The translations under genes and the position numbers were made by a program. The notes below the pieces were generated by a model. The model made no database searches. It was not told where the DNA came from and was given only the letters and a program-made list of their open reading frames with translations. From Nitrosopumilus sp. (lineage in GTDB: Archaea > Thermoproteota > Nitrososphaeria > Nitrososphaerales > Nitrosopumilaceae), in contig NZ_JAILWC010000004.1 in NCBI RefSeq assembly GCF_025699125.1, positions 160,735-200,734 of the forward strand: a stretch of DNA of 40,000 nucleotides. Direction: 5' to 3'. Below, one piece after another: positions 21,889 through 39,109 of this stretch. How positions within the stretch are numbered: position 1 is the stretch's first letter; each line of letters opens with the position of its first letter.

Positions 21889-21924
21889 GAGAACTCTAAA
21901 TACAAAATAGGGAATTGACATTGT

Positions 21925-22626: not shown

Positions 22627-22663
22627 GTATACTGTTGATTTATCCTGCAGCATATGTAAATAC

Positions 22664-23089
22664 ATGATAAATTCACAACAACAAAAACAACAACTAAACA
22701 AAATCCAAGAATTAACCTATTGGGGAATCCGAGCCTCAGTTGGAGCAATCTTTTTTGTATATGGTATGCAAAAATTCGACCCGATATGGAAACAACATCT
22801 AATCAACTTTGGATTTCCTCCAGAACTGCAAATTCCTATTGCGTTAGCTGAAACCATAGGAGGAATATTCCTAATAGTTGGTTTTATGACAAGAATTACT
22901 GGTGCTGTATTTAGCATAATTCTGCTAGATGCAATATTTCACATCAGATGGGAAAATGGATTCTTCATAGCCCAAGGTGGATGGGATTATGATCTTGCAC
23001 TACTGACAATGATGCTATTTGTTATTGTAACAGGTACAGGAAAAATTTCCATCAATTCAAAATTGAAGATTCCAAAAATTCTTCAATAA
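22664..23089 (+). CDS. DoxX-family membrane protein
   Basis: GIRASVGAIFFVYGMQKF, LAETIGGIFLIVGFMTRITGAVFSIILLDAI and four TM helices fit DoxX. The track ORF starts at TTG 22535, but that leader holds the palindromes, so ATG 22664 (MINSQQQ) is the likely start. Confidence 0.7.
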   Translation: MINSQQQKQQLNKIQELTYWGIRASVGAIFFVYGMQKFDPIWKQHLINFGFPPELQIPIALAETIGGIFLIVGFMTRITGAVFSIILLDAIFHIRWENGFFIAQGGWDYDLALLTMMLFVIVTGTGKISINSKLKIPKILQ

Positions 23090-23114
23090 TTTTTTTTATT
23101 TAATTTGAACTCGA

Positions 23115-23366
23115 TCATGGATGCATCATCTTATCATCCATCATGTTTCCGCGTATAATTTCTTGCATCTGCCCCATTACCTCTGGGTTTTCTGACATGT
23201 GGCCCAACATCTGCAATATTATGTTTGGATCGTTAATCATTTCCATCATCATTTCCTGCATAAAATCATGATTTTTTCTCATCATAATTCCCATATCCTC
23301 TGCATGTTGAGTATTTTGCATCCATGTTCTTATTGCCTCTTGATCTTGTGTTGTTGATTCCATCAT
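23115..23366 (-). CDS. methionine/histidine-rich small soluble protein (candidate Cu(I)-binding protein)
   Basis: 83 aa with 19 Met (counted) plus 4 His, in clusters MMxxM, MQEMMMEM and MMDDKMMH. There is no signal peptide or TM helix. It lies inside the metal island. Confidence 0.6.
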   Translation of the reverse strand: MMESTTQDQEAIRTWMQNTQHAEDMGIMMRKNHDFMQEMMMEMINDPNIILQMLGHMSENPEVMGQMQEIIRGNMMDDKMMHP

Positions 23367-23624
23367 TTGTTGTCTGAATTGGGGGATCTCACATCATTGT
23401 AATCTTACAAAAAGAGATCTACTATGGGTGTTCTCAATAGCATTGTGTGGTGCAGTATTGCGCCAAGCCTGTATTTTGTTGGATTGACACATGCAAGTGC
23501 ATCTGATACCTGCTCTTATTGCAAATGGAGAAGTGGTCTTTTCAGTTTTACTTACAGTGATGCCAGATATTAAAGATGAAATTCCCAATATTGGCCCCAT
23601 ATGAAAATTAGATTTTGCATATAA

Positions 23625-24554
23625 CTATCGTTCAATTTCTACAAAAATATACTCTTTGTTGGAATTTGGCAGAATTTTCATAATTTCGTGTTCAATCACA
23701 TCAGTTACCACCTCAATTTTATCCGTATCCAACCCATCAATCAAATTTACTTCAATTCCAACTATGATGATAGTAGGACTAAGATGCATTGTTTTCATAG
23801 TGACAACTTTGTGGACTTCAGGTATTGCAGCAACAACACCTATAATCTGTTTTCTTTGTTCTGGGGAAATTGATTCTCCTATTAGCAGACCTCTGTTTTC
23901 TTTGGCCAAGAAAAAGGCAAACGACATCAGCAGTATTCCAATAATAATTGAGCTTATAGAATCATATACAGTATTTCCAGTTATGTCTGTAAGAAATATT
24001 CCTACAGCTGCAATTCCAATTCCTAACAATGCAGCAGTGTCTTCCACCACTACAGTTAGAATTGAAGTGTCCTTGCTATTTTTAAATTCATTATACAAAG
24101 TTGAAGGTCTTGTCTTTTCACCTCGTTCTTTAATTGGTTTTTTAAATTGAATTAGTGCAATTCTTAACGCATTTGCCTCAAAACCAAATGCAATTGCAAG
24201 TACAATGTAATTTATTACAGGATTTTCAAAATTATGCCCCTCGCCCAACAAAGATGAGAATCCCTGTTCAAGGGACAATATGCCAGATATTCCAAAGATC
24301 ATGGTAGCTACAACAAATGACCAGAAAAATTGGGACTTTCCAAAGCCAAACTGATGTAAATCAGTAGCAGGTTTTTTGCTTATTTTGATACCCAGCAACA
24401 ACAGAATTTGATTAACTGTGTCTGAAGCAGAGTGATAAGATTCTGCCCACATTGAAGCACTACCCGTCATTGCAGCTGCAATAAACTTTGTAACTGCAAT
24501 TCCCAGATTTCCAAAAAGTGCTGCGTAAACTGCGTTGGTAGATCCAGATGCCAA
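23625..24554 (-). CDS. cation diffusion facilitator (CDF) family metal efflux transporter
   Basis: 309 aa, six TM helices, with ESYHSASDTVNQILLLLG (TM2 metal site) and VVEDTAALLGIG (TM5). The C-terminal cytoplasmic domain contains VHKVVTMKTMHLSP. TTG start. Confidence 0.8.
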   Translation of the reverse strand: MASGSTNAVYAALFGNLGIAVTKFIAAAMTGSASMWAESYHSASDTVNQILLLLGIKISKKPATDLHQFGFGKSQFFWSFVVATMIFGISGILSLEQGFSSLLGEGHNFENPVINYIVLAIAFGFEANALRIALIQFKKPIKERGEKTRPSTLYNEFKNSKDTSILTVVVEDTAALLGIGIAAVGIFLTDITGNTVYDSISSIIIGILLMSFAFFLAKENRGLLIGESISPEQRKQIIGVVAAIPEVHKVVTMKTMHLSPTIIIVGIEVNLIDGLDTDKIEVVTDVIEHEIMKILPNSNKEYIFVEIER

Positions 24555-25743: not shown

Positions 25744-25915
25744 GTCACAATGTATTTTTTATCATATATTACATTGTCTTATTGGAGATTCTACTCCCAT
25801 TTTGGGGATAAATGTCAGTTACTTGAGCGAGATTTACAAGAATAATTCGGCACTCTAATTCTCTGAAGAATAACTGTCTCTTTGATTCAAGTCTCTAATT
25901 TCAAGTGTTAACGAG

Positions 25916-25936
25916 TTTATCGACAAACAGTAAAAA
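25916..25936. repeat. left copy of 21-nt direct repeat (target-site duplication) TTTATCGACAAACAGTAAAAA
   Basis: It is identical to 37314-37334 and immediately abuts the outer end of the left TIR. Confidence 0.8.
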
Positions 25937-25986
25937 CAGTATCCCCCCGAAATACGCGTAAATTCCTGACGGTTGTCGTAATGCTT
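25937..25986 (+). repeat. left terminal inverted repeat
   Basis: The sequence is cagtatccccccgaaatacgcgtaaattcctgacggttgtcgtaatgctt. Compared with the reverse complement of 37261-37311, the outer 12 nt and inner 14 nt are identical, with about 40 of 51 aligned positions matching overall. Confidence 0.8.
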
Positions 25987-26013
25987 TTCTGTTAAGATCA
26001 AAAATAACAATTA

Positions 26014-26835
26014 TTGTCTGAATCACAAAAGCCTAAAGAATTCAAGTATGTATTTCATGGCAGAGTTTTACCAGAAAGAGCAGATGTCGAAATCACAGGA
26101 GGTCCAATTATCGGAATACAAACTAGCACTGGGTATGATCTTAGAATATCTTTTGAAATTCGAAAATCTTTGATTTCAATACATGTAACATCTTTTGGAG
26201 AAATTACTGATTTTGCAGAAGTTAGAAATTTCTTACTGGATTTTGTTCGATTACATACAGATTCGTACGGATACATTAAGGGATATGCATATGATGCAGA
26301 AATCACATCTGTAAGTGGCGAGAACAATCAACCTTACATAATTTTTGGAGTAGGGATAAAGGAATTGACCGATGAAGAATCCAAACGCGCGTTTCAAAAA
26401 ATAGATAAAATTATCTTATTAGCAATACAAGACAAATATCGATTCATTTATGGCACATTAGCAAATCTTCGACTATCTATCAAATATCCTTCTGATACAG
26501 GAACCTTTTGTTATAGAGCCGTTGAAAGCATTAGACAATATTTTGGAGTTAAAGGCGATTCCAGAGATGCAAGAAAAAAAGCTTGGGAAAAATTAAATGC
26601 AGAGCTTAATGTTGATAAAAGTTGGACAGCTAGAATAGCTGATTTTGCATTAGATCCGAGACATGGAAAACAAAAATCAATCACACATGATGAACGGGTA
26701 GAGATAATGCAAAAAACTTGGGTGATAGTGGATAGGTTTTTGATTTATGCTCAAAATAATGAACAAACTTTAGACACTGCCTCGTTTCCATTACTAAAAT
26801 ACAATGACACAAAAGGGACAAAAGAATCACTATAA
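26014..26835 (+). CDS. casposon ORF, unknown function (273 aa)
   Basis: TTG start 28 bp inside the left TIR, with no in-frame ATG for about 230 codons. It overlaps the cas1 start by 32 nt. I recognise no motif. Confidence 0.55.
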   Translation: MSESQKPKEFKYVFHGRVLPERADVEITGGPIIGIQTSTGYDLRISFEIRKSLISIHVTSFGEITDFAEVRNFLLDFVRLHTDSYGYIKGYAYDAEITSVSGENNQPYIIFGVGIKELTDEESKRAFQKIDKIILLAIQDKYRFIYGTLANLRLSIKYPSDTGTFCYRAVESIRQYFGVKGDSRDARKKAWEKLNAELNVDKSWTARIADFALDPRHGKQKSITHDERVEIMQKTWVIVDRFLIYAQNNEQTLDTASFPLLKYNDTKGTKESL

Positions 26836-27805
26836 CGTAAAACTACTACGAGGCTACGGAGTATCCATATCTCTCAAAGACTCTAAAATTATTCTAAAAA
26901 ATGGAAGGCATGTTATCACAGGAGAACAAGAATCCGAAGAATGGTTTGTCAACAACATGCCATATGAAAAAATAATACTTTCTGGAAAAGGATATGTTAG
27001 TACGGAAGCATTATCATTATTATCTCAAAAGAACAGAAACATAATCCTAATTGACACATACGGTAAACCAATAATCTTCTGCAACTCTATGATGGATTCT
27101 CTAACGGCTACAAAATATCGAATGGCACAGTACGATACGTTCAGAGATCCTGAGAAATGTGAGTATCTGCGTAAGCAGATTATACAAAGTAAAAAAGAAT
27201 CTCAACTAAAACTGTTAAAACTAATTGGTAGTGATGTAACTTCTCTACCTGAAAAAGAACATCTTGCAAGTAAAGTCTATTTCAAAGAATTTGCCAAAGT
27301 CATTCCTGAAAGATATGGATTTAATTCAAGAAATCAATCGTTTATCCGAACATCAAAAAACAATGCAACTGATATCATCAATGCGTTACTAAACTATGGT
27401 TATTCTGTTTTGGCAGGGGAAATCTCAAAGTTTGTCTGCGGGTTTGGATTAGATCCTTATTTTGGATTTATGCACAAATCTCATACGGGATTTCAACCGT
27501 TGGTTTATGATTTGATAGAACCATTTCGATGGCTAGTTGATTATACTGTATTCAAAATTGCAAACCATCCAAATTATCGTTATAGAATCAAACTCAAGGA
27601 ATTTGTTCATACAAGGGAGGGGAATGTCGTGATGGATTCATCTTTGATCAAGAGGTTTTTGGAGATGTTAGAAAGACAGTTCCAACAGGAAAGAAAGTAT
27701 GATTTTAGGCATGGAAAGAAGACTGAATCGGGTTTGAAATCAGTTCAAGAAATTACTGTTGCAAAGATTATGATTCAAAAATTATCTGATTTTTGTAGCC
27801 AATAA
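26804..27805 (+). CDS. cas1: Cas1-family integrase (casposase)
   Basis: 333 aa with an N-terminal beta-rich domain (LLRGYGVSISLKDSKIILKNG). The catalytic alpha-domain motifs are ATDIINALLNYGYSVLAGEI and GFMHKSHTGFQPLVYDLIEPFRWLVD, carrying the conserved His and acidic residues. Confidence 0.88.
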   Translation: MTQKGQKNHYNVKLLRGYGVSISLKDSKIILKNGRHVITGEQESEEWFVNNMPYEKIILSGKGYVSTEALSLLSQKNRNIILIDTYGKPIIFCNSMMDSLTATKYRMAQYDTFRDPEKCEYLRKQIIQSKKESQLKLLKLIGSDVTSLPEKEHLASKVYFKEFAKVIPERYGFNSRNQSFIRTSKNNATDIINALLNYGYSVLAGEISKFVCGFGLDPYFGFMHKSHTGFQPLVYDLIEPFRWLVDYTVFKIANHPNYRYRIKLKEFVHTREGNVVMDSSLIKRFLEMLERQFQQERKYDFRHGKKTESGLKSVQEITVAKIMIQKLSDFCSQ

Positions 27806-27809
27806 TTTT

Positions 27810-28265
27810 TTATTTTTCTAAAACTTCTTCAACTGTAGAGCACTTACATTTAGAAACAAAACTATCTTCTTGAATAGCTTTTTTTAGATTTCCATCTGCA
27901 GTTACAAGGATTGCATTAGATTGTAATGTTACACCAACAAATTCAGTGTCACATTTTTTAACTCCTTCAAAATTATTTGAAATACCCTCTATTATACTCG
28001 TTTTCAATGGATCACTCATCACTCCTAAAAATCTAGGAATTATATGATTGTCTAATATCTCGTTATTGTATTTCTGTTCCACTTTTTTAGGTAATGCAAA
28101 AAACTTTTGTTGAATTTTCAAATTCATAAACTGTTTGTCTTTGTTTGAGAAAAATCCATAAAGAAATATTTTTTCTGTATCTGCATTTTTAGATTTATTG
28201 TTTGATGCTTTTTTTCCATGAATTGCATTTAAAACAACATTTTCATCAATTACATAATCAGTCAT
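27810..28265 (-). CDS. PIN-like domain protein (putative nuclease partner of the ATPase)
   Basis: The N-terminal MTDYVIDENVVLNA resembles the PIN first strand plus Asp. The C-terminal CDTEFVGVTLQSNAILVTADGNLKKAI resembles the PIN D..ia.A....a.LvT.D motif. The ATG at 28265 overlaps the ATPase stop by 8 nt (ATGACTGA). The track start is TTG at 28298, and a further in-frame ATG lies at 28280. Confidence 0.5.
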   Translation of the reverse strand: MTDYVIDENVVLNAIHGKKASNNKSKNADTEKIFLYGFFSNKDKQFMNLKIQQKFFALPKKVEQKYNNEILDNHIIPRFLGVMSDPLKTSIIEGISNNFEGVKKCDTEFVGVTLQSNAILVTADGNLKKAIQEDSFVSKCKCSTVEEVLEK

Positions 28266-29520
28266 TGGGTTCACCCACATATTTAGAAAACATTTCAAAA
28301 TCAGTTTCCCAAAATTCTTTTAATCCATTTTTGATTTGTCCATGTTCATTAATAGGTAAAGTCTCTATTTTTGAAACCCCTGTTTTTTCATCTTGATAAA
28401 ATGAATTTACTGTGACTCTAGTGGGGTTAATTTGCTGTTTGCTTGCAATTTTTGCTAAAAATGGATAGAGCATATGCTCACTATGAGTAGTAAAAATAAG
28501 CTGTTTATTGTCTTTGTTTGAAATTTCTATCATTAATTCTACAAGTTTTGATTGAGCTTTGGGATGCAAATGGATTTCAGGCTCATCTATGGCAATTACA
28601 GAACCTGAAGGACTTCCTACCAGTATTGTAAGTAACAAGATTACTTGATTAGGACCAGTTCCTTCGTTTGCAATAGCATTAGCAAATCCATTCTTTACAA
28701 ATTCCAAGGTCACTCCTTGCAGTTCAGATGAAAGAAGGTCTACATTTCTAGTACGAATCGTTTTACCCGTTAATTGATGGATAAATGAACTGATTTTACC
28801 TAGCAAATCGGTATCTTTGCTTAATTTGCTTAAAGTTACATCCATTAAAGATTCTGGACTACTTGAAAGTAAATCATCAGGTGTTCGTACCAATTTAACA
28901 CCATATTTTGTTGCAGAACGAAAAAATGGAATATAGAAAAACTCATCTAACAATTGTTCGGTAAATTCCCCATTTGCAAATATATTATTGATTCTAGTAC
29001 TTGTTTCACTCCCCTCCTTAGATGCTATTCGTGGGTGTAGTCCATTTATGGAACACTCTAACGTGGACTTTTCCTCTTGTCCTCTTCTAGAATTAATACG
29101 TGTTTTCTGATTTCGATAACTAAATTCAAAATCGTAGTGATCTACATTTACACCTAGATACACATCAGAAATACCCTTTTCCCCTTCTGTAACATAATAC
29201 CCGAAATCAGCTTTTGTTTTTCCTTCATAATCAATTCCGGTGGCGATTGTTTTTATCCCTTCTACCCCAATTCGTATTTTTCGTGTAAGGTCACCAAATG
29301 AGACAACATCTTTAAAATTTCCATAATCATAAGAGTCTGTTGAATATGTTAGATTATTGGTTCCTTGTTGTTTCAATGATGTTTTTAAAATTAAAAGAGC
29401 TTGAAGAATAGATGATTTTCCACTGCTGTTAGATCCTATGAGAATATTGAATTGACTTAATGGTATTTCCCAATTAACATGTGATTTAAAATTCTCTAGA
29501 CGTATTTTTTCAAGATACAC
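28258..29520 (-). CDS. ABC/SMC-like AAA_15/AAA_21-family ATPase
   Basis: 420 aa, GTG start. The N-terminus YLEKIRLENFKSHVNWEIPLSQFNILIGSNSSGKSSILQAL carries Walker A. The C-terminus VIAIDEPEIHLHPKAQSKLVELM...LIFTTHSEHML carries Walker B, D-loop and H-loop. Confidence 0.8.
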   Translation of the reverse strand: MYLEKIRLENFKSHVNWEIPLSQFNILIGSNSSGKSSILQALLILKTSLKQQGTNNLTYSTDSYDYGNFKDVVSFGDLTRKIRIGVEGIKTIATGIDYEGKTKADFGYYVTEGEKGISDVYLGVNVDHYDFEFSYRNQKTRINSRRGQEEKSTLECSINGLHPRIASKEGSETSTRINNIFANGEFTEQLLDEFFYIPFFRSATKYGVKLVRTPDDLLSSSPESLMDVTLSKLSKDTDLLGKISSFIHQLTGKTIRTRNVDLLSSELQGVTLEFVKNGFANAIANEGTGPNQVILLLTILVGSPSGSVIAIDEPEIHLHPKAQSKLVELMIEISNKDNKQLIFTTHSEHMLYPFLAKIASKQQINPTRVTVNSFYQDEKTGVSKIETLPINEHGQIKNGLKEFWETDFEMFSKYVGEPND

Positions 29521-29546
29521 TATTTACAATCGATCTGATAAAGAAT

Positions 29547-31445
29547 TTAAAGATCACTTTCAGGTTCATATACAAATTCATCATATCCTGACCAAATAAT
29601 CTCATTCTTTGAGATAATATCTCCTATAATATCAATAGGAATAGGCACAGAATCACACCATTTCTTGTCTTTTAATGATTCCAAATCGGATAACCAATGT
29701 CGCTTTCTATCTGAGTTTAGTCCAATTTTCTTGTCATACGTTTCAATCTTTCCAATATCATCAATTTTGTCATATACAATTCCTCCTTTGATATGGGTGG
29801 TTCTTGTAGTTGCAACAGTAATGTAGAGATTTCCTTCCTCATCAATCTTTGTTGCCAAATGTTCAATCTCTATCTTTCTTTCAGTGTCATATCCTATTCC
29901 ACGATTCTTCCATTTGCCATTGATATGATAGAATCCGTTAGAAAGAAAATACGTGTCAAAGCCATACTTGTCAAGTTTCATCCCCCCTAGTTTTTTACTA
30001 TCTAGATTTGGAATCTTTTTTCTGCATGCAATAGAGTCAGTTGCAAATGCCACTACATCTCTTTCAATGTTATTGTCTCTGACAAACTTGTACAGTTGTG
30101 CCCTTGCAAAACCTGTGATGTAAGATGCAATAATTGGATTAAACAAATTGCCCATAACACCATTTGTTCGCTGAGCCATCTTACCATAGACGGAATTTAG
30201 AATGATCTTGATTGCTCTCTCTAGCGAATTTCCTTCTTTTTGTAATTCCATTCTTTTCTCATATTGGGAATTTACAAAGTCTCTAAATGGATATGTACAG
30301 TTTTCATTTGCAATGAATTGCTGTGATTCTATTATTTTGTATTTTATTCTAGAGTCACCAATTACTGCCTTTAGTTCCTCTAGTGTGACAAATGTCTCAA
30401 ACTCTCCTGATGGGTAGATGATTCTATTATTTTTTGTTCTAAATGGAAATGGCGAAATTTTAACAGAATCAGAAACATATGCTCTGATGTGAAAGAATCC
30501 TAATGATGCTTTGGGGTTTATTCTAGTGGAATGAATCCATTTGCCATCAGTAATGTCTGGAAGAAATGTTAACGCATATGGATACGCTGAATTGATATCA
30601 TAGATGTAGCACTCTCCGATGAATCCGCGTTGAATTAGCTCAAATCGCCCTCCATAGAACGATTTCCACGCCAAATCCTGTATTTCATAGGGAATATCAG
30701 TAAACAATGCGATTTCCACGTCATTGAATATCAATACTTTTTCTGCCAGATATCCCGAACTTATCCAGTTTGCCGTGTAAAACTGGTATGCGTTAAAAAA
30801 AGTATCTAGCCAGTAATCTGCCAGTTCTTGAGTTAAAACACAATCCAAAAGACAATAGTCTCGGATCTTTTGCTTGTTTCTCATAAAGTATCGCAGTGAA
30901 AACTTTTTTCTCTTTTCTTTTGTTTCAAGATACTCTTGATCAAGAGTCTTTTTGATATGCTCAGAATATGCAACCTCGAGTCGTTTGTTATCATAGTATT
31001 GTGCAATATCATAGCATGAAATGGAATGCTTGTCTTTTCTAATTGTTAGTTGCTTTTTTGGAATGTATCTTATTTGATATCCGTTGTATTGAAAATCTAA
31101 TCTTTTACTAGTCTTGTAGGTTTTAAGAATGTCTTTGGGCAATAATTTTAAAATGCATTCAGCATCATATTGTAGATTGTAAAAAAATATCCAATACCCC
31201 TCATGCTTTAGAAGAAGTTTTGCAATGTTATCAAATGTTATGTCTGGATATTCTAGTTTAACACCATTTGACAACATGAAAAGAAAAATGTTTCCTTTAA
31301 CAGTTTCAGTGTCAGCCCCCAAAGTTTTTCTTCGTTGTGAGATGTTTGGATTTCTGTTCTGCTTTCTAGTTTTGATAAATGTCAGGTCTTTGGCATTTGA
31401 TTTCGGAGTGTAAACTTGCAATGTCATGGGCTTGGATTCCTCCAT
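29547..31445 (-). CDS. polB: family B DNA polymerase, protein-primed type
   Basis: 632 aa. The motifs are ExoI GADTET, ExoII FFYNLQYDAE, ExoIII YCLLDCVL, Pol A YIYDINSAYPYAL, Pol B KIILNSVYGKMAQ and Pol C VVAFATDSIA. Confidence 0.9.
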   Translation of the reverse strand: MEESKPMTLQVYTPKSNAKDLTFIKTRKQNRNPNISQRRKTLGADTETVKGNIFLFMLSNGVKLEYPDITFDNIAKLLLKHEGYWIFFYNLQYDAECILKLLPKDILKTYKTSKRLDFQYNGYQIRYIPKKQLTIRKDKHSISCYDIAQYYDNKRLEVAYSEHIKKTLDQEYLETKEKRKKFSLRYFMRNKQKIRDYCLLDCVLTQELADYWLDTFFNAYQFYTANWISSGYLAEKVLIFNDVEIALFTDIPYEIQDLAWKSFYGGRFELIQRGFIGECYIYDINSAYPYALTFLPDITDGKWIHSTRINPKASLGFFHIRAYVSDSVKISPFPFRTKNNRIIYPSGEFETFVTLEELKAVIGDSRIKYKIIESQQFIANENCTYPFRDFVNSQYEKRMELQKEGNSLERAIKIILNSVYGKMAQRTNGVMGNLFNPIIASYITGFARAQLYKFVRDNNIERDVVAFATDSIACRKKIPNLDSKKLGGMKLDKYGFDTYFLSNGFYHINGKWKNRGIGYDTERKIEIEHLATKIDEEGNLYITVATTRTTHIKGGIVYDKIDDIGKIETYDKKIGLNSDRKRHWLSDLESLKDKKWCDSVPIPIDIIGDIISKNEIIWSGYDEFVYEPESDL

Positions 31446-31801
31446 ATGACATCTGAGATGTCTGATTCAAGTCCTCGCCTTAATTTTGAGAATTCGCTTC
31501 TTATTTCTCTAAGTGATTTTCCAGTATCAAAATTCTTTTGTATAGATCTAAAGTAATTCCAGCTTCGTCGCATCTTTTGACTGCGATTCTTGTTTGCATC
31601 TGATCTTTTCTTTTGTCTTTCCTCTTCTTTTTGGTTTTTAGATTTTAGCAGTTTTTGAATCTGGTTCTGAATGTTCATGCGTTCGCCCATCAACTGTCTG
31701 AGAAATTTCTTGGTTTGAGCCGTCTGTCGAAATACCTGTAATTGCTCAATTTCCTTCTTGATAACTTCAATTTCTGAGCGCAATCGGTCGATTTTTCGCA
31801 T
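31424..31801 (-). CDS. highly basic coiled-coil protein upstream of and overlapping polB (hypothetical)
   Basis: 125 aa, rich in K/R/Q, with heptad-like EIEVIKKEIEQLQVF. It overlaps the polB start by 22 nt. Confidence 0.55.
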   Translation of the reverse strand: MRKIDRLRSEIEVIKKEIEQLQVFRQTAQTKKFLRQLMGERMNIQNQIQKLLKSKNQKEEERQKKRSDANKNRSQKMRRSWNYFRSIQKNFDTGKSLREIRSEFSKLRRGLESDISDVIWRNPSP

Positions 31802-31885
31802 ATCATAGGCATAAAACCATAGATTATCAGTTGGTAAGTAGATTTATGATGTTATGAGACATATGTCAAAAAAGGTAAAAATGAC

Positions 31886-32656
31886 ATGGTAAATGAAAAG
31901 AATCCTAAGTCTGTTCTTAAAAATCGCCTTTCACAAGAGTTATTTTTTGAGATATTCATGATGCCTGCATCAGGCTACAAACTGGCTCAAATTGTTCAGA
32001 ATACGACAAAGACCCCCAACACAAAATCTGTTTATCGAGTTTTGGCAAAATTGATAGAACACGGATACATCACATATAAAGACAAAAAATATCATCACAA
32101 TCCAAAAACACTTACTGATGAACTTGTAAAATATTTGAATTCGAAGGATGTTGTATTGGATAAGGCTGATATGAATTATCTTTTATTTCTGGTAACCAAT
32201 GCTGAATTTTTTAATCATTTTATAGTTGATCTTAATATTCATGTAAAACCAAAAAACTACCAAAATCTATTACAGGAAATCACAAACATGGTTGGCATGT
32301 GTGCTGCAATATTGTTGTATGGAATAAATACATCAACAACAAAGCCCATTCCAGTAAGAATTTCGCTTGAGAAAATCAATGAAAGGATAATGAAATTAAA
32401 AAAACATGTTAATGATGAAATACCTAAAAAAGTACGTGGTTCAAAATCACAACGAAAATTACAACAAAAACAATTAGAAAAATTGTATCATCATCTTCTG
32501 TCTTATGTTTTTTTATTTGTTGTACAAGAAAAAATACCTAAAAAAGCATTGATAAAATTTGCAACTCTTTGGAATCAATATGGAGGATTTAAAATTGGAG
32601 TCAAAGTTGGAAAGATTGATTTTAAAAATAATCCATTTAGAAAACACTTTGAATAA
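31886..32656 (+). CDS. winged-helix DNA-binding protein (hypothetical regulator)
   Basis: 256 aa. MPASGYKLAQIVQNTTKTPNTKSVYRVLAKLIEHGYITYKD fits a PadR/MarR-like wHTH. It is divergent from the polB operon. Confidence 0.55.
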   Translation: MVNEKNPKSVLKNRLSQELFFEIFMMPASGYKLAQIVQNTTKTPNTKSVYRVLAKLIEHGYITYKDKKYHHNPKTLTDELVKYLNSKDVVLDKADMNYLLFLVTNAEFFNHFIVDLNIHVKPKNYQNLLQEITNMVGMCAAILLYGINTSTTKPIPVRISLEKINERIMKLKKHVNDEIPKKVRGSKSQRKLQQKQLEKLYHHLLSYVFLFVVQEKIPKKALIKFATLWNQYGGFKIGVKVGKIDFKNNPFRKHFE

Positions 32657-32914
32657 AATATTTTTAAAAATATGTCTACTATAATCATTAATGTAATTTT
32701 AATTCAAATGGTAAAACTATAAAGAAAAATTAATGTTTTTACATAATTATATCATTACAATTCCATAATGAGTTACAGTTTAGGTTTAGTTTCATTGTAA
32801 CAATTCAGTAATGATTTTACTGATTTTGTGAATAACTAGCCATAATATTGTGAATTATTACAGAATCAGGCATAATATTCCATTTTGAATTCCAATTATT
32901 TATTCGTAGAAAAA

Positions 32915-32930
32915 ATTCCACATGTGGAAT
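32915..32930. repeat. perfect 16-bp palindrome ATTCCACATGTGGAAT
   Basis: Read directly from the sequence. It is flanked by two copies of aattccaattat (32888-32899 and 33003-33014). Confidence 0.7.
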
Positions 32931-33181
32931 AATTCCTAATGGAACTGTTACAGTTTCAAATTGTGTTTGTATTATCTTTTTTAATTCTAATTCGAATTGT
33001 AAAATTCCAATTATGATATTAATTCGGATAAAGCCCGTTCGAGTTATATCTTCGAATTTGCACTTTTCACGCCTAGTTAAACGGCAAAAGCATAGGAATT
33101 GACCTAATTCGAATCATCAAGTGAACCTAGTTTGTCGAATCGTAACCTTTTTGAATCGCCGTTGACATCAATGAACTTTTT

Positions 33182-33445
33182 CAGTAATTGGAGGGTATTT
33201 TTGAAAACCTGTTCATTTTGATACAGTAAAATTTACGAAAACAAGTTTACAGAAACCCCAGTAAAATTATGAATAAAATCATGAAAACAAGGAAAAATTT
33301 ACTGTTTTATGCCTAGTAAAATTCAGTAAAATCATAATTCTATGTATGAAAAATAACACCTTATCGGAGTAAAGTTTACTGATTATTTAGTAAAGTTTTC
33401 AAATGTAAAGTGGTGGACAAAACTATTCAATCAGGAAAGTAAAAT
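33182..33445. repeat. iteron array: at least 10 copies of (C/T/G/A)AGTAAA(A/G)T in both orientations
   Basis: Full 9-mer copies lie at 33224, 33259, 33314, 33324, 33367, 33388 and 33437. Shorter or variant copies lie at 33182 (cagtaat), 33297 (inverted, cagtaaat) and 33375 (inverted, cagtaaa). A related hairpin tcagtaa-N5-ttactga lies at 32805-32823. The array ends at the start codon of the TIR-like gene. Confidence 0.65.
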
Positions 33446-34790
33446 GGACAATGAATTACCATACAAAATTTTGAAAATAATGCGAGATCTTTACAATATG
33501 GACCCTATGAGTTACATGGGTATGGATTACTTTGAACCAGAACTTAAACTTCCTGAAGAAGTAATTCAAGGGGCGTTAATCTATCTGAAAGAAAAAGACT
33601 GGATAAGATCTTTCAAAGATGTTCATGGTGAATGGGTTCAACGAATCAACGCTAATGGAATGGATGAATTACTAAACTATGAAAAAGAACATGCTGATGA
33701 TAATGAGCCATTAGAATTTGATGTGTCTCATGAAGATCATACTGGTAAAATCAAGGTCTTTATCAGCCACAAATTTGTAAAATCAGACCAAAAATTAGCA
33801 AAAGCCTTAGAACACAATCTTAATGAAAATAACATCTATGGTTACTTGGCAGAACGAAGAAAAGAATATGATATTGTATTTGGAGAGAAAATAAAAAATG
33901 AAATTAAATCATCAGACTATCTAGTAGCCATTATTACTAAAAACTCTCATTTTGCACCATCAGTACATCAAGAAATAGGATACGCTATGGGAATTGGAGT
34001 TCCTGTCAGAGTAATGGCTGAAGAAAAAGAAGCAAAAGGAGTATTAGTAGAAGGCAAAGACATTGAAATTTTTACAAGATATGATTTTGAAAAATATCTA
34101 GGAAATATAATAAAAAATATTCAAAAAAATGGAATTAGAAAAAAACTATCTCAAAAAGAAAAAGATGATCTAATTACACATGTGTATCGTCCTTGTTTTA
34201 ACCAATTAATGAATATATATCCAAAACGAGATTTCATAACAGAAATTCCAGATAATGCGTGGAACAAACTTGAACCATTTTGGCAATTAAAATGTGAGCC
34301 TGAAATATCAAAACTTTTTCAGGAATACGAAAAAGAGAGAAATACTTGGCATCTAATGTGGATAGACTTTCAAAATAAATGCCAATCCAAACGAAAAGAA
34401 TTAGGAGAAATGCTTAGACCTATTTTTGAAAAATATCATTTGTTCAATTTGGATGGAACTCTTTCTTTTGGAGGATATGATCTTAATCCCGAAGAATGGA
34501 TTCATAACTGTCAGGATGTTCTGTTTAACCCTCAAATTCAAAATCGATTGGAGTTGTACGTAACATTAAAAGACTTTGCACTAAAGAAATGGGGCGAAAG
34601 ATATTCAAAATCATATGACAAATGGCATCAAAACAATCCGTTGATTTTTACTGAAATCTTAAAAATGATTCCCTATTTAATAGATAAACTAGATGCAGAA
34701 TTCCCATATAATAAAATCAATGATCAGAGAAACATTCTAAAAGAAAAAATCGAGATATTGACACTTGCTCTAGAAGAAAAATTGAGATGA
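33444..34790 (+). CDS. wHTH + TIR-like (DUF1863 / nucleoside 2-deoxyribosyltransferase-like fold) domain protein with unknown C-terminal helical domain
   Basis: 448 aa. Residues ~103-215 read KVFISHKFVKSDQKLAKALEHNLNENNIYGYLAERR...SSDYLVAIITKNSHFAPSVHQEIGYAMGIGVPV, matching the TIR-like pattern (FISH start, S.wv.qEig.A with a conserved Glu). The N-terminal ~80 aa looks like a wHTH. Confidence 0.6.
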   Translation: MDNELPYKILKIMRDLYNMDPMSYMGMDYFEPELKLPEEVIQGALIYLKEKDWIRSFKDVHGEWVQRINANGMDELLNYEKEHADDNEPLEFDVSHEDHTGKIKVFISHKFVKSDQKLAKALEHNLNENNIYGYLAERRKEYDIVFGEKIKNEIKSSDYLVAIITKNSHFAPSVHQEIGYAMGIGVPVRVMAEEKEAKGVLVEGKDIEIFTRYDFEKYLGNIIKNIQKNGIRKKLSQKEKDDLITHVYRPCFNQLMNIYPKRDFITEIPDNAWNKLEPFWQLKCEPEISKLFQEYEKERNTWHLMWIDFQNKCQSKRKELGEMLRPIFEKYHLFNLDGTLSFGGYDLNPEEWIHNCQDVLFNPQIQNRLELYVTLKDFALKKWGERYSKSYDKWHQNNPLIFTEILKMIPYLIDKLDAEFPYNKINDQRNILKEKIEILTLALEEKLR

Positions 34791-34791
34791 T

Positions 34792-35709
34792 ATGATGAAA
34801 ATTCCCAAAATTCCTTCGTCAGTTGAGAATTGGTCTATAGAAAAAATAGATGAGTTGATTCAATATGTGGGGATTGAATCAGATACTTTTGATTTTAAAA
34901 AAGAACCAAATCAATTAGAAGAACATATCTGTGCAATGGCAAATACCAAGGGAGGACATCTAGTATTGGGGATTGAACAAATTGATAGTGAAGATGGAAA
35001 GCAAATTGTAAAATTTGAAAAACGTGGGTTTAAACATGGTTTTGAAGATAACATTAAAAATCAAATCAGTAACAGTGTTCTTCTGATAGAACCAATACCT
35101 GATGTGGATATTATTCCAGTTCATGAAAAAGATAACAAAAAATTCTATATCGTAATCCAAATTCAAAATAATTTTTCAAATAAACCTTATTTTGTACGTT
35201 CAACTGACCAGTGTTTTGTAAGAATTCATAACTCAAAAATACGTGCAAATCGTTCAATTATTTTTAATTTATTTGGAACATCAATCGAACAGAGGAAAAA
35301 TCTTGAAAGTTTACGTTCTGCAAGTAGTATGGTGGAAGAATCTTTTAGACATGTTATTAGCAGAATTTATTTTGTTTCGCCTGAGTCAAACATGAAAATT
35401 TCTCTTCTAGAATTATCGTATTTACGAACTACTGCTGTTTCTTGTGATGCATTTCTAAAAGAAAGAGACTTGTGGGGCGAACATACTGGACAAGGCAGTT
35501 ACACTCATGGAATTAATTCTTTATTGCATGATTTAGAATTTATGAACACATACATCAAATCATACAACGATTCACATGATACTGATGAAAGACGTGATCT
35601 GAAAGGACAACTGTCGTCATACAGTTTGGGTAGCACGTTTGAGACACAAACATTAGAAATGTTTGATAAAATAATCTGTTCCGTAGATGTATTTCTTTCA
35701 AAAATATGA
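34792..35709 (+). CDS. Schlafen/AlbA_2 (divergent AAA_4) domain protein
   Basis: 305 aa. ESDTFDFKKEPNQLEEHICAMANTKGGHLVLGIEQIDSEDGKQIV matches the AlbA_2 signature (E..eFK....l...icAfaNt.GG.l.lGv). The start lies 1 nt after the upstream stop. Confidence 0.6.
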   Translation: MMKIPKIPSSVENWSIEKIDELIQYVGIESDTFDFKKEPNQLEEHICAMANTKGGHLVLGIEQIDSEDGKQIVKFEKRGFKHGFEDNIKNQISNSVLLIEPIPDVDIIPVHEKDNKKFYIVIQIQNNFSNKPYFVRSTDQCFVRIHNSKIRANRSIIFNLFGTSIEQRKNLESLRSASSMVEESFRHVISRIYFVSPESNMKISLLELSYLRTTAVSCDAFLKERDLWGEHTGQGSYTHGINSLLHDLEFMNTYIKSYNDSHDTDERRDLKGQLSSYSLGSTFETQTLEMFDKIICSVDVFLSKI

Positions 35710-35744
35710 TCATACCTTATTAGTATGAAAATAATTTGTTGGAT

Positions 35745-37262
35745 ATGAGTGATTTTAACTCAAATCGGATTTTTACAATTTTATTTTCACTAATATTGTC
35801 ATTATTAATTGCAAGTCAAATCACTGCAATAGTTTCGGTATATGAAAATATATTAAAACTAATTATTGATGACTATTCAGAAGAGTTATTAAAATCACTC
35901 ATTTTTAATCTTGGAAAAAATATCTTTTTTACATTAATTTTTGCCCTGTTGATTTTTGTTGGAATTAAAAAATTTCTAAAATTCAAACAAAAAGAATTCG
36001 GAACTGTGGATGAATTCAAACAAATCTTTCGTGTTATGATTACCAAGAAGCGTCTTTTCTTCTCATTTCTTCTAGCATCTATTATGCTTTGTTTAGGAAT
36101 TGCATCTTCTTATTATGCGACTGATATTTTGTCCACATTAATTAATGAAGGCGGACTTTCAAACCCCATTTCGAATGAACAGAAAAAGTTGTTAACTGAT
36201 TTAGCATTAGAACTTAGTTTTGGAGTCATTTTCATAATATGGGGCACATCTACAATTATTCGGATTTTTCAAACTGCATCTTCTTCTCTTCACGATAGCA
36301 AGATATCTGCAATAACTACAACCATTACTACAAAATACAGTGAGAAAAAAATCTCAAAACCATCTAGAATAAAAAATCAATTAATTCAAAATCCGATATG
36401 GAAAATTTTTCTATATGTCATAATTGTGCCGTGTATTTTTTTACTTTTAATTTTTTACAGTTCAGATATTCTTAAATCAATTAATTCCAATTTCGAAACA
36501 CCCATACTGCCTTTTGGACCATATGTTATCTATTTGATGATGATTTTCATTTCGATAGTTAATAACAGATATGTAAGCACATATAAAAAAACCAATGTTT
36601 CAAAACATTTTGAAATTTTAGGTTCAAAATACATAATTAAAGAAAATCGTATATTGGAAAAAATTTATCTTGTGACATTTATTCTCATGATTATTTCAGT
36701 AATCATCTTTGTAGCATACATTGTGATAAATCCTCAAAGCGATGACATAAATGCAGAACAATTGGATCCTATTGCTGTATTCTTTTTTTCATTATTCTTT
36801 GGGTTTATGCTCATGTTTACAATCACATCTGTAAAAATAAAAGTGGATCGTGATAAAGATGATTTTTTACTATGGATATCTGGGGGGTTTTTCGAAGAAG
36901 GATTAAAAAATAAAGATAAAATTAAAGAGTATTTGGATTATGGTTTACAATCATACAATACTTTTTTTAAAATACATCACAAGCAAAAAATTATTGATAT
37001 TCAACATATCATTATTGAGATTGTTTCTAAAAAAGAATCAGAAAAAATACAAATTATTCAAAAACTAATAGCGTCATTTAAATCCAATAACAATTATGAT
37101 GCACTGAATGAAATATGCAAACTAATGGGCGTGAAATCACATAATATCATTACATCTAACAAATTTGTTTTAAAAATAAAAGATTGGGGAACTTTCATCA
37201 TCTCGGTTTTGATATTAACATTAACAATTATGTGGTATTGGAAAGAAGGATTATTTTCTTAA
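35745..37262 (+). CDS. polytopic membrane protein with soluble C-terminal region (hypothetical)
   Basis: About 505 aa with at least 8 hydrophobic helices. The track start is TTG at 35736 and an ATG lies at 35745. The stop codon (37260-37262) overlaps the first 2 nt of the right TIR. Confidence 0.6.
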   Translation: MSDFNSNRIFTILFSLILSLLIASQITAIVSVYENILKLIIDDYSEELLKSLIFNLGKNIFFTLIFALLIFVGIKKFLKFKQKEFGTVDEFKQIFRVMITKKRLFFSFLLASIMLCLGIASSYYATDILSTLINEGGLSNPISNEQKKLLTDLALELSFGVIFIIWGTSTIIRIFQTASSSLHDSKISAITTTITTKYSEKKISKPSRIKNQLIQNPIWKIFLYVIIVPCIFLLLIFYSSDILKSINSNFETPILPFGPYVIYLMMIFISIVNNRYVSTYKKTNVSKHFEILGSKYIIKENRILEKIYLVTFILMIISVIIFVAYIVINPQSDDINAEQLDPIAVFFFSLFFGFMLMFTITSVKIKVDRDKDDFLLWISGGFFEEGLKNKDKIKEYLDYGLQSYNTFFKIHHKQKIIDIQHIIIEIVSKKESEKIQIIQKLIASFKSNNNYDALNEICKLMGVKSHNIITSNKFVLKIKDWGTFIISVLILTLTIMWYWKEGLFS

Positions 37263-37311
37263 GCATTACGACAAAGCGTCATAAAATCACGAGTAAAGTG
37301 GGGGGATACTG
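37261..37311 (-). repeat. right terminal inverted repeat
   Basis: The sequence is aagcattacgacaaagcgtcataaaatcacgagtaaagtgggggggatactg, and its reverse complement aligns with 25937-25986. Confidence 0.8.
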
Positions 37312-37313
37312 TT

Positions 37314-37334
37314 TTTATCGACAAACAGTAAAAA
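37314..37334. repeat. right copy of 21-nt direct repeat (target-site duplication)
   Basis: It is identical to 25916-25936. The 5 T at 37312-37316 could belong to either the TIR or the TSD. Confidence 0.8.
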
Positions 37335-37425
37335 GGGAACGCCCCCTCTTTGTGAGTAAAATTGTGCTAGGAACTAGGTAAATTTTGAGAGTCTGTTTAG
37401 TTTAAAATTATCTTGAGTAAATTAA

Positions 37426-38148
37426 TCAGCGAAAATTCTCTAATTCTATGGTGATCTTTTCAATTAGTTTTTCTAGTGGAGGTATGAGAAAATTAATGCT
37501 TTCTCTACTGATGATGTTTTCATAAATGCTAACACGATGTGTTTTGGTTATTTGAATAAACGCAAACAGACTATACAACGTATCTGAATCAATCACATCA
37601 TTAGATAATTCAATAACATGCTCGATGCTTTGAATTGGTTCCTCGATTGGATAATTAAGATAGGAGACATACGAATCTTGGTCATGTTCTGGATAGATAT
37701 ATTGTTCTCCTCCTTCTGGAATGGCTTGTCTAATCTGTTTTATACCATTAAGTACATTAAATAATTCAAGAATAATCTTGCGGTATGCAAAGTTTTTACG
37801 ATTATTTGTAAACAAAGATTGTTGTTCTATTGTCTCCAGTAGTTTTTTATCTAGATCCAATTGGGATTTTTCCATATTTTGAATCTCTATAACTAATTCA
37901 GAAATTTCACCTTGTTGAGATTTCATTTGTTTTTTGTATTTTTTATCAAACAATAACACTACTCCTGAAATAAATCCTGCAATACCTACTTCAATTACGA
38001 CTGCGGCCCAGTTCATGAAATCGTTTTCTGTTTTGTAATCTATTTGATAGATGCCAGAAATAACCAAAATTACACCTACGATTAACATTGATGTGGCAAC
38101 AACTAGAATTACAAACATATATGCAGACAGAAATTTTTCTTTGCTCAT
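37426..38148 (-). CDS. two-TM membrane protein with coiled-coil cytoplasmic domain (hypothetical)
   Basis: 240 aa, ATG start. Two N-terminal TM helices are followed by QQGEISELVIEIQNMEKSQLDLDKKLLETIEQQ. Confidence 0.55.
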   Translation of the reverse strand: MSKEKFLSAYMFVILVVATSMLIVGVILVISGIYQIDYKTENDFMNWAAVVIEVGIAGFISGVVLLFDKKYKKQMKSQQGEISELVIEIQNMEKSQLDLDKKLLETIEQQSLFTNNRKNFAYRKIILELFNVLNGIKQIRQAIPEGGEQYIYPEHDQDSYVSYLNYPIEEPIQSIEHVIELSNDVIDSDTLYSLFAFIQITKTHRVSIYENIISRESINFLIPPLEKLIEKITIELENFR

Positions 38149-38185: not shown

Positions 38186-39109
38186 TTATTTGTTTTTCTT
38201 TTTTGTATTATTGTAATATCGCTTTGCTACAAATACAAAAAACCCAATAATGTATAATGTAACACTGGATATGGTTAAAACTTCAAACCAAGTAAGGTCA
38301 GGAGGAATAAAATCAGTCATTGCTACAATACTTGACAAAATCAAAATAGAAACAGCAGCAAAATATGTCACATGCAAAACGAATGTATCAGATCTTATCC
38401 ACAATGCATGACCAATCATTAGTAATATTGGCATTCCAGTTAAGACAAGATATGGAATAATTTTCTGTTGATAATTTTCAGCGTTTGCTATCTCAACATC
38501 AAATTGAAAAATCGTTGAATCTTCAAATTTTGGATTTATGTCTGGGACTAATTCTCGTATTTTCTCAAAACTGGTTTCATGTGGAGTTATCATTAGACTC
38601 CAACTAGGGTTTTGTGAAAAATCTCCTACCTTGTAAATATTAATATCACTACTAGCATCATCCCACTTGTCATAACATAATTTTACATCTTTATCAAATT
38701 CTAAAAATAATGGAAATTCGTATGTTTGATATGGCCACAGATTTGGAGAATCAAAAATAGGCGTAATTCTTCTTTCATGAATATGTTGATTTACTTCAGT
38801 TTCAAAATACCCTTTATCGTTTTTTTCAATCACATGAATAATCTGTGCTCCCAAGTAAGGATATCTTCTATGAATAACTTGAAAAGATTCTGTTTGTTTA
38901 TCTTCATCCTCTGCATCAAAATCAATAATAGCATACACTTGTTTGTTTAACACGTCAAATTCTTGCAATCCTACAGTATAATGAAAATTGAGTTCTCGAA
39001 TTCCATCTTCATTTAGACAAATTTTACCTAACGATGTAGAAACTGCATGTGCATTTAACGGTACCCAGATAACTAGCACAAATATGAATATCATAAGATA
39101 TTTTTTCAA
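38186..39109 (-). CDS. signal-peptide protein with extracytoplasmic domain and three C-terminal TM helices (hypothetical)
   Basis: 307 aa. The signal peptide is MKKYLMIFIFVLVIWVPLNAHA. TTG start at 39109, with an ATG alternative at 39094. Confidence 0.55.
   Translation of the reverse strand: MKKYLMIFIFVLVIWVPLNAHAVSTSLGKICLNEDGIRELNFHYTVGLQEFDVLNKQVYAIIDFDAEDEDKQTESFQVIHRRYPYLGAQIIHVIEKNDKGYFETEVNQHIHERRITPIFDSPNLWPYQTYEFPLFLEFDKDVKLCYDKWDDASSDINIYKVGDFSQNPSWSLMITPHETSFEKIRELVPDINPKFEDSTIFQFDVEIANAENYQQKIIPYLVLTGMPILLMIGHALWIRSDTFVLHVTYFAAVSILILSSIVAMTDFIPPDLTWFEVLTISSVTLYIIGFFVFVAKRYYNNTKKKNK

Follow-up and report, generated by a model that had tools for sequence, protein, structure and literature searches.

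The right end of a casposon in a Nitrosopumilus archaeon raises the question of whether three genes that lie one behind the other on the same strand form a single system or were brought together as separate passengers. The adaptation module of CRISPR-Cas probably goes back to the Cas1 integrase of casposons, and these elements are usually described as carrying little beyond their replication and integration genes and a few nucleases. The locus lies in a 40-kb stretch of Nitrosopumilus sp. DNA (hereafter the window; contig NZ_JAILWC010000004.1, positions 160,735 to 200,734), to which all coordinates refer unless another locus is named; homologous loci are labelled L001-L037, and protein homologues carry P labels. 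An original prediction made from the sequence alone saw in the three genes one sensor, signal-generator and membrane-effector system. Our analysis speaks against this system, and we consider it probable that the genes are instead stacked, independently mobile single-gene modules, the first two of abortive-infection type, and that their casposon serves as a small mobile defence island.

Three tightly packed genes fill the right arm of a family-1 casposon

As had been predicted, three tightly packed open reading frames (ORFs) occupy 33444-34790, 34792-35709 and 35736-37262, all on the plus strand, with gaps of 1 and 26 nucleotides (nt). The third frame is open from a TTG codon at 35736; the true start of gene 3 is most likely the ATG at 35745, which is favoured by comparison with the homologue and by the database product length of 505 amino acids (aa), and which would widen the gap to gene 2 to 35 nt. 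Gene 2, in turn, may start at its second ATG (34795), because its homologues begin with MKIP. The genes, their predicted domains and the ends of the element are as follows.

25931-25990, no strand: left terminal inverted repeat, whose 18-nt end matches the right end perfectly, with an imperfect extension to ...GTCGTAATGCTT
33225-33443, plus strand: conserved region before gene 1 that resembles a promoter/operator and contains AGTAAA[AG]T seven times, aligned with homologous upstream regions
33444-34790, plus strand: gene 1, a TIR protein with a novel C-terminal domain (CTD; together TIR-CTD), 448 aa (TIR_2 match, AlphaFold2 model, Foldseek, alignment of its Glu with MilB, family alignment)
33444-33692, plus strand: winged helix-turn-helix (wHTH) of gene 1, residues 1-83 (AlphaFold2 model, Foldseek match of MarR type)
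33741-34133, plus strand: putative TIR-type N-glycosidase domain of gene 1, residues ~100-230, with the Glu177 codon at 33972-33974
34146-34787, plus strand: helical CTD of gene 1, residues 235-448 (AlphaFold2 model)
34792-35709, plus strand: gene 2, a prokaryotic Schlafen (pSlfn), 305 aa (SLFN_AlbA_2 at 2.4e-14, motif, Foldseek)
34858-35247, plus strand: Slfn nuclease domain of gene 2, residues 23-152
34876-34899, plus strand: Ex4DxK motif of gene 2, E29/D34/K36, invariant in 33 sequences
35251-35706, plus strand: helical C-terminal domain of gene 2, residues 154-305 (AlphaFold2 model)
35710-35744, plus strand: candidate promoter element of gene 3, CCTTATTAGTATGAAAATAATTTGTTGG, conserved with L007
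35745-37262, plus strand: gene 3, a polytopic membrane protein, 505 aa (hydropathy; ORF open from TTG 35736)
37263-37317, no strand: right terminal inverted repeat, followed by the target duplication at 37318-37328

The predicted casposon setting was also confirmed, and the cassette does fill the right end of the element up to the terminal repeat. The element possesses Cas1, a protein-primed PolB, inverted termini and a target duplication and is a family-1 casposon of a Nitrosopumilus archaeon. It spans 11.4 kb (25931-37317) of the AT-rich window (~30-35% G+C) and is bounded by perfect inverted repeats of 18 nt (25931-25948 and 37300-37317), which extend imperfectly to ~58 nt, and by an 11-nt direct repeat, TCGACAAACAG, on both flanks (25920-25930 on the left and 37318-37328 on the right). 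Cas1 is encoded at 26804-27805 (Pfam Cas_Cas1, 2.4e-43). The 632-aa ORF at 29547-31445 had no Pfam match of its own; it is the PolB of the window, with 63% identity to the PolB of L003, which carries a PF03175 (DNA_pol_B_2) match. Genes 1-3 fill the right arm completely, and the inner edge of the right terminal repeat starts directly after the stop codon of gene 3.

The three genes are rarely neighbours elsewhere

To compare gene neighbourhoods, we gathered contexts by exact-protein look-ups and one metagenome scan and scored them by tblastn against the proteins of the window. Among TIR-CTD homologues with downstream sequence, a Schlafen gene is the neighbour in 2 of 11 distinct contexts, the window itself and L006. 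The latter is a close relative, with 80% identity in the TIR-CTD protein, 70% in the Schlafen protein and a similar terminal repeat. A TIR-CTD homologue of 73% identity, in L034, is followed by an unrelated 234-aa gene and has no Schlafen neighbour. What comes next after TIR-CTD in further loci is listed below.

L001: a protein with four transmembrane (TM) segments and a NERD gene
L002: a type I restriction-modification system
L013: a double-wHTH gene
L037: DUF8371, on an integrase-type element
L003, L014, L015 and L017: the casposon terminus

The reverse comparison gave the same picture, with a TIR-CTD neighbour in two of seven Schlafen contexts. The other settings of the Schlafen gene are these.

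L008/L009 and L036: alone, in different casposons
L032: in a 2.3-kb deletion derivative
L033: in another mobile-looking region
L030: beside housekeeping genes at a contig end

Across the contexts of the TIR-CTD family we found no conserved partner gene. Gene 3 is rarer still, with a single homologue among 5.8 billion clusters, 56% identical and located in L007, where it is likewise the last gene before the casposon terminus. Its upstream neighbours there are an ArsR-like HTH gene and a 220-aa gene, and TIR and Schlafen are both absent, so that the only homologue of gene 3 stands beside neither of its supposed partners; the third position in L006 is taken by a 4-TM protein unrelated to gene 3. 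Despite their different upstream genes, the window and L007 share ~35 nt upstream of the ATG at 35745, and this conservation suggests that gene 3 has its own promoter.

Genes 2 and 3 contain no SLOG, Macro, SAVED, CARF, STING-type or other known signal-receptor domain detectable with Pfam, PADLOC or NCBIfam. Membership in Thoeris was considered and rejected, as neither gene 2 nor gene 3 nor any other casposon gene gave a ThsA, SLOG, Macro or SIR2 match in PADLOC or Pfam. Since the genes are not syntenic elsewhere and genes 1 and 3 carry upstream elements of their own, genes 1-3 do not appear to be one system. The original prediction thus survives in part: the TIR fold with a conserved Glu is upheld, but three-gene synteny in other loci is essentially absent. 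The defence flavour that had been ascribed to the cassette was sustained: homologues are located on casposons, on an integrase-type element and, in one case, next to a type I restriction-modification system, and none in housekeeping operons. No viral homologues of the cargo proteins were found in IMG/VR or among GenBank phages.

Gene 1 combines a winged helix, a TIR domain and a new helical domain

A TIR-like core with a conserved Glu near residue 177, behind a wHTH-like region and ahead of an unknown domain, had been read from the gene 1 sequence, and each of these parts was recovered. TIR_2 is the sole Pfam family above its gathering score (32.0 bits versus 28, E = 2e-7, residues 105-192), and the stretch KVFISH...SVHQEIGYAMG falls inside this match. 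Nuc_deoxyrib_tr (1e-3), TIR and DUF4062 remained below the Pfam threshold, PADLOC returned weak ThsB matches only (1.2e-5), and the sole NCBIfam result was a weak match to the retron TIR domain. Only 34 of 5.8 billion clusters belong to this small family, and 28 of its members were aligned. Its N-terminus varies, being mostly a winged helix, in some members with an extra insert and in some missing. F106, S108, H109, K110, F111, D115 and Q116, which make up a TIR box-1-like VFISHKFxxxDQ, are invariant, as are S173, Q176, E177, G179 and A181, and the TIR-like core is followed by a conserved CTD of ~215 aa.

The AlphaFold2 model built from the family alignment (mean pLDDT 83.7) has a wHTH at residues 5-83, an alpha/beta domain at 103-229 and an all-helical CTD at 237-447. 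Within the first of these, residues 5-68 form three helices and a beta-hairpin wing, with a Foldseek match of MarR type. The strands of the TIR domain are placed at 103-108, 131-135, 159-164 and 188-193. Foldseek against the PDB matched gene 1 with a probability of 1.0 to SPARTA TIR-APAZ, RPS4, SpbK, TIR-STING, RUN1 and a Bacillus cereus TIR protein; the related N-glycosidases BcmB and DNPH1 are also among the matches, and the target-normalised TM-scores against solved TIR domains are 0.5-0.6. Among viral models (BFVD) the matches are deoxyribosyltransferases and CMP hydrolases, which rank at the top, and TIRs.

By sequence, the closest solved relative is MilB (E = 0.003), with SVHQEIGYA of gene 1 aligned to GTHVEIGWA. 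In this alignment, on which the matching of the Glu rests, E177 falls on the catalytic Glu of MilB, the residue that is replaced in 4ohb (THVAIGWA) relative to 4jem (THVEIGWA). In the model E177 lies in helix 172-184, after strand 159-164. Because it is aligned with the residue replaced by Ala in MilB 4ohb, the invariant Glu177 is predicted to be at the catalytic position of the TIR/MilB-type enzyme superfamily. As for the substrate, the box-1 motif and the Pfam and structural rankings favour NAD+ over a MilB-like nucleotide.

In one family member, P0020 (715 aa), the N-terminus is extended by a stretch similar to the exonuclease region of casposon PolB (…YALDTETT…). This chimeric ORF may have arisen through a deletion that fused polB to TIR-CTD, or it may reflect an artefact of assembly or gene calling.

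The CTD of gene 1 is portable and its promoter region carries a repeat array

An exhaustive HMMER search with residues 231-448 against 1.84 billion representatives found the CTD in 64 proteins, and it is C-terminal in every one. Pfam was run on 34 CTD proteins; TIR_2 lies upstream in 24 of these, ThsB_TIR in 17/34 and Nuc_deoxyrib_tr in 16/34, and the CAP12 TIR and TIR models also match many members. In two of the 34, P0108 (834 aa) and P0115 (793 aa), a KAP-family P-loop NTPase replaces the TIR domain. Judged by these architectures, the CTD is a small portable module that sits on different enzymatic heads, and because of this we infer for it a regulatory or trigger-sensing role in gene 1. The possibility that genes 1 and 2 bear a common sensor was also considered and rejected, as an hhalign comparison of their two C-terminal domains gave a probability of 0.3%, that is, no homology.

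Directly upstream of gene 1, 7 of the 15 copies of AGTAAA[AG]T in the window are packed into 214 nt (33225-33438). The upstream region, including TTTAGTAAAGTTTTCAAATGTAAA, is conserved before the TIR-CTD homologues of L006, L034 and L001. The region is likely to be a promoter with an operator array, and the wHTH of gene 1 is a candidate binder. Single copies of the repeat are also found in the right terminal repeat (37292) and in a second casposon terminus just outside the element (37355).

The stretch without ORFs upstream of gene 1 measures 787 nt. The part between a 256-aa wHTH gene (31886-32656) and the gene 1 promoter region (32657-33224; ~570 nt, 26% G+C) is rich in short inverted and direct repeats and contains no ORF of at least 45 aa. 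Rfam gave no RNA gene at E <= 0.1 in the 787-nt gap or in the rest of the casposon.

Gene 2 is an archaeal Schlafen with an intact catalytic motif

The AlbA_2/Schlafen signature that had been reported for gene 2 proved genuine. SLFN_AlbA_2 matches with 54.3 bits against a gathering score of 25.3, FDFKKEPNQLEEHICAMANTKGGHLVLGIE lies inside the match and the Ex4DxK motif is intact. The family has 37 close members, all of ~300 aa, and E29, D34 and K36 (E29-SDTF-D34-F-K36) are invariant in 33 homologues. Ex4(E/D)xK is the catalytic motif of prokaryotic and human Schlafen RNases, and the equivalent mutations in RorSlfn5, E15A/D20A, abolish both phage defence and tRNA cleavage (PMC13056530). The AlphaFold2 model of gene 2 has a pLDDT of 88.3, and Foldseek placed it with SLFN14, SLFN11-N, SLFN5 and the AlbA_2 domain 2kyy at probabilities of 0.99-1.0. 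A PDB profile match to the CRISPR-associated Schlafen (Cash) protein CbCash is weak (E = 0.015), and PHROGs gave only a generic AlbA_2 'helicase' match.

Residues 154-305 form a helical domain (pLDDT ~90) with no fold match. Fusion to a domain presumed to be a sensor is reported for 97% of pSlfns, with 17% of the fusions lacking annotation (PMC13056530). Within 6 kb, gene 2 has two neighbours of defence type, the TIR gene and an AriA/NsnB-like ATPase. Stand-alone Schlafen genes have an upstream element in common, distinct from that of gene 1, and neither the window nor L006 retains it. In the window 1-4 nt separate gene 2 from gene 1, and in L006 the two genes abut. Genes 1 and 2 are therefore probably co-transcribed in both loci, an arrangement that we regard as secondary, two cassettes having come to lie side by side.

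Gene 3 is a polytopic membrane protein

The original description of gene 3 as a protein of ~505 aa with at least eight TM helices fits its hydropathy: the Kyte-Doolittle profile has 9-10 hydrophobic segments, with a soluble region of ~110 aa at ~370-480 and a C-terminal TM helix. Pfam, PADLOC, NCBIfam and PHROGs assigned it to no family.

The same slots carry defence-type cargo in other casposons

To delimit casposons we used the terminus pattern TAAAAA-N6-[CG]CCCCC, which bounds complete elements in the window, L003 and L015 and marks further ends in L007, L008, L011, L014, L017 and L032. A scan of GTDB genomes with the single PolB sequence of the window gave one locus, L011. Of 13 distinct TIR-CTD contexts, 9 also contain PolB, Cas1 or casposon termini, and in all of these the gene occupies the right arm; in L003, L014, L015 and L017 it is the final gene, or close to the final one, ahead of the right terminus. 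Schlafen is in a casposon context in five of seven. Both therefore recur, separately, in the right-arm slot of diverged family-1 casposons. The PolB of L011 is the closest to that of the window (83%), yet the L011 element has neither TIR-CTD nor Schlafen, while in L012 a PolB fragment of only 41% identity adjoins a TIR-CTD gene of 63% identity. This discordance between backbone and cargo identities indicates that casposons have swapped cassettes with one another.

A similar picture emerges for the slot between Cas1 and PolB: of six elements examined, five have a gene of defence type there.

Window, 27810-29520, minus strand: AAA_15 ATPase (PADLOC NsnB 1e-45, AriA 5e-39) and an overlapping 162-aa ORF
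L003, 3353-5296: TIR_2-TPR
L008, 1718-2623: RelA_SpoT-like, PDC-S33
L036, 2202-3443: CAP12/Pycsar-type TIR, PDC-S35
L011, 11945-15238: Dsr1-like protein of 1097 aa, 5e-39

In the sixth element, L015 (2124-3245), the slot holds a 373-aa gene that matched no family. OLD, NERD, HNH, Cas4 and HEPN genes have been noted earlier as cargo of family-1 casposons (Krupovic et al. 2019, PMC6563490), and TIR-domain or Schlafen cargo is mentioned neither there nor in Krupovic et al. 2014 (PMC4046053). Within the library that was searched, no paper combined 'casposon' with 'Schlafen' or 'TIR domain'.

Stacked modules or a single system

The explanation that we favour is that the right-arm slot has gathered three independently mobile genes, of which genes 1 and 2 would each be self-contained, with sensor and effector in one chain. 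In gene 1 the CTD would sense a cue, upon which the TIR domains would assemble, hydrolyse NAD+ via Glu177 and arrest the infected cell; by analogy with the direct NADase effectors SpbK, SPARTA TIR-APAZ and TIR-STING, no partner gene would be needed. The AGTAAA(A/G)T array in front of gene 1 is probably the binding site of the wHTH, and the gene would then be autoregulated. By analogy with bacterial pSlfns, the helical C-terminal domain of gene 2 may sense a viral cue and release tRNA cleavage, leading to translation shutdown. Gene 3 would be a membrane protein with no tie to either. The cargo presumably benefits the host and thereby pays for retention of the casposon.

Several points weigh against this explanation. 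Genes 1 and 2 lie 1 nt apart, and L006 preserves this spacing, which would also fit a functional coupling of the two in this lineage. A membrane protein follows TIR-CTD in the window, L006 and L001, and while the three are mutually unrelated, they provide a weak hint of a TIR-plus-membrane arrangement. The C-terminal domains of genes 1 and 2 have no recognised fold match, and to call them sensors is our inference. The best solved sequence match of gene 1 is not a TIR domain but MilB, a CMP N-glycosidase, so that the substrate could be a nucleotide other than NAD+. Finally, the related contigs are mostly short metagenome fragments, and the context counts are small and biased to what assembled.

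The MilB match leads to the alternative that fares best, although we still regard it as unlikely: the gene 1 domain could be a nucleotide N-glycosidase of the nucleoside deoxyribosyltransferase (NDT)/MilB/DNPH1 type that depletes or edits (d)NMP pools, for example modified viral nucleotides, in place of consuming NAD+. The alignment of SVHQEIGYA with GTHVEIGWA in the best PDB sequence match (E = 0.003), the Nuc_deoxyrib_tr score of 1e-3, with matches in 16 of 34 family members, and the deoxyribosyltransferase and CMP hydrolase at the top of the BFVD matches are all consistent with such an activity. However, TIR_2 alone exceeds its gathering score, the top structural matches in the PDB are TIR domains, and the ThsB_TIR, CAP12 TIR and TIR models match many members of the family. 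Moreover, the VFISHKFxxxD box-1 motif is typical of TIR and not of NDT.

It is also conceivable, if rather improbable, that the genes serve the element and not antiviral defence, either by acting like toxins or addiction modules or by attacking rival mobile elements such as casposons with the same target. In four loci casposons are arrayed in tandem at the same site, which implies that they compete for one target, an autoregulated wHTH-toxin architecture resembles toxin-antitoxin logic, and both the TIR-CTD and the Schlafen family are almost confined to mobile elements. Against this, no conserved antitoxin-like partner accompanies the genes, one homologue adjoins a type I restriction-modification system, a typical defence-island setting, and phage proteins trigger those pSlfn and TIR effectors that have been studied by experiment (PMC13056530). 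A role in the service of the element and antiviral defence are compatible and not mutually exclusive.

We give still less credence to a derived two-gene pair, confined to this lineage, in which an NAD-derived signal from TIR-CTD would activate the co-transcribed Schlafen via its helical C-terminal domain. This proposal would account for the 1-4 nt gap in the window, the abutting genes in L006 and the missing stand-alone upstream element of gene 2, and signal-activated prokaryotic Schlafens do exist, the parallel being Cash, which is activated by cA4 (PMC13462974). However, the Schlafen family (47-72% identical) occurs alone, without TIR-CTD, in other casposons, the TIR-CTD family is mostly stand-alone, the pairing is seen in two closely related elements only, and the C-terminal domain of the Schlafen resembles neither known nucleotide sensors nor the CTD of gene 1. 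In its Thoeris-like form, in which the TIR domain of gene 1 would make an NAD-derived messenger that switches on a Schlafen tRNase as the effector in the window and L006, we think the idea very improbable. The originally proposed three-component system, in which the TIR protein would sense and signal, the Schlafen bind nucleic acid or the signal and the membrane protein act as the abortive-infection effector, is scarcely credible: Thoeris-type TIR signalling with membrane effectors is an established precedent, genes 1-3 are tightly packed on one strand, and L006 repeats the order TIR-CTD, Schlafen, membrane protein, but the gene 3 homologue of L007 occurs without genes 1 and 2, the third gene of L006 is unrelated, gene 3 has its own conserved upstream element, TIR-CTD and Schlafen are apart in most contexts, and no receptor domain was detected in genes 2 and 3.

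Surroundings of the casposon and further termini

The integration target in the window (25910-25933, ...AACGAGTTTATCGACAAACAGTAA) mimics the final codons and stop of the EF-2 gene, the end of which is the target of other family-1 casposons; the version in L003 is GACGAATATATCGACAGAGAATAA. An EF-2 gene as the actual target in the window was considered and rejected, since the mimic covers only the last ~7 codons and the window contains no EF-2 gene.

A second casposon terminus, TAAAAAGGGAACGCCCCCTCTTTGTGAGTAAAATTGTGCT, lies 11 nt past the right end (37329-37390) and closely resembles the terminus beside the gene 3 homologue in L007. It is part of a tandem array or a solo remnant. Beyond it are two genes, 37426-38148 and 38186-39109, both on the minus strand. 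Head-to-tail junctions with 11-nt spacing are also found in L003 (9736), L011 (4767/4779) and L017 (1352); a single pair of tandem family-1 casposons has been described (PMC6563490).

In L032, a miniature casposon of 2.3 kb (5942-8246) has kept both termini. It consists of a Cas1 fragment (residues 1-252) that runs into a 5'-truncated Schlafen gene (residues 46-304), and is a deletion derivative and possibly a non-autonomous element.

To the left of the casposon, a metal-handling cluster (17638-24554) encodes a multicopper oxidase, a P-type ATPase with YHS/TRASH, an AsnC-TRASH regulator, DoxX and a cation-efflux protein. It may be another mobile region, because multicopper oxidases are reported as frequent cargo of integrated elements in thaumarchaea (PMC6563490).

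Comparison with known systems

Collectively, these results define two protein families, a TIR-CTD family that is mostly casposon-borne, with a CTD that can also be fused to KAP and a repeat array upstream, and an archaeal Schlafen family with a candidate sensor domain. Gene 2 is a new archaeal member of the pSlfns and gene 1 a new architectural variant of TIR effectors; the pattern of the casposon as a shuttle for defence genes has previously been noted only in part. No new principle is involved; known effector families are extended to archaea and to a new class of vector. Should a census confirm the pattern, family-1 casposons would be small mobile defence islands in globally abundant ammonia-oxidising archaea, the antiviral biology of which is, to our knowledge, almost unexplored.

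The nearest relatives of gene 2 are the pSlfns RorSlfn5 and EcoSlfn7 (Perez Taboada et al. 2026, PMC13056530) and Cash (PMC13462974; PDB 9ylu), with which it shares SLFN_AlbA_2, the Ex4(E/D)xK motif, a fused C-terminal domain, defence-type neighbours and a size of ~300 aa. Unlike these, it is archaeal and casposon-borne, and its C-terminal domain is a helical bundle and not Ig-like, HisKinase, DUF262 or Csx15.

Gene 1 shares the TIR fold and box-1 with stand-alone TIR NADases, namely SpbK of ICEBs1 (PDB 9phb), SPARTA TIR-APAZ, TIR-STING and ThsB, and its conserved Glu, at the start of the helix that comes after the third strand, is a candidate counterpart of theirs. Like the stand-alone effectors it is found on a mobile element and has no conserved neighbour that could be a separate effector. 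It differs in its wHTH-TIR-CTD layout, with the new helical CTD of ~215 aa, and in having only weak PADLOC matches to ThsB; unlike SPARTA, TIR-STING and Thoeris, it has no Ago, STING or ThsA partner. The TIR domain is ThsB-like (PADLOC 1.2e-5), but Thoeris consists of ThsA and ThsB, and with neither ThsA nor any conserved partner the locus is not Thoeris. In its presumed catalytic helix, SxxQEIGYA, gene 1 looks more like NDT/MilB enzymes than like stand-alone TIR effectors. It shares the alpha/beta fold and an aligned Glu motif (THVEIGWA versus SVHQEIGYA) with MilB, BcmB, DNPH1 and the nucleoside 2-deoxyribosyltransferases. Unlike this group, its Nuc_deoxyrib_tr match is sub-threshold, its N-terminal strand motif is TIR-like, and it is a multidomain protein of a mobile element and not a biosynthetic or salvage enzyme.

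The element itself is similar to the family-1 casposons NitAR1-C1, NitNF5-C1/C2, NitDev-C1 and NitEve-C1 (PMC4046053, PMC6563490), with which it has in common a Cas1 without HTH, a protein-primed PolB, small conserved genes upstream of polB, terminal repeats and an EF-2-like target. With family-1 casposons and pipolins (PMC11551731) it further shares element-specific cargo that includes defence-associated nucleases, and tandem integration. The density of PADLOC-annotated defence genes was reported to be lower in casposons than in pipolins (PMC11551731); in contrast to that low density, nearly every element examined here carries defence-type genes.

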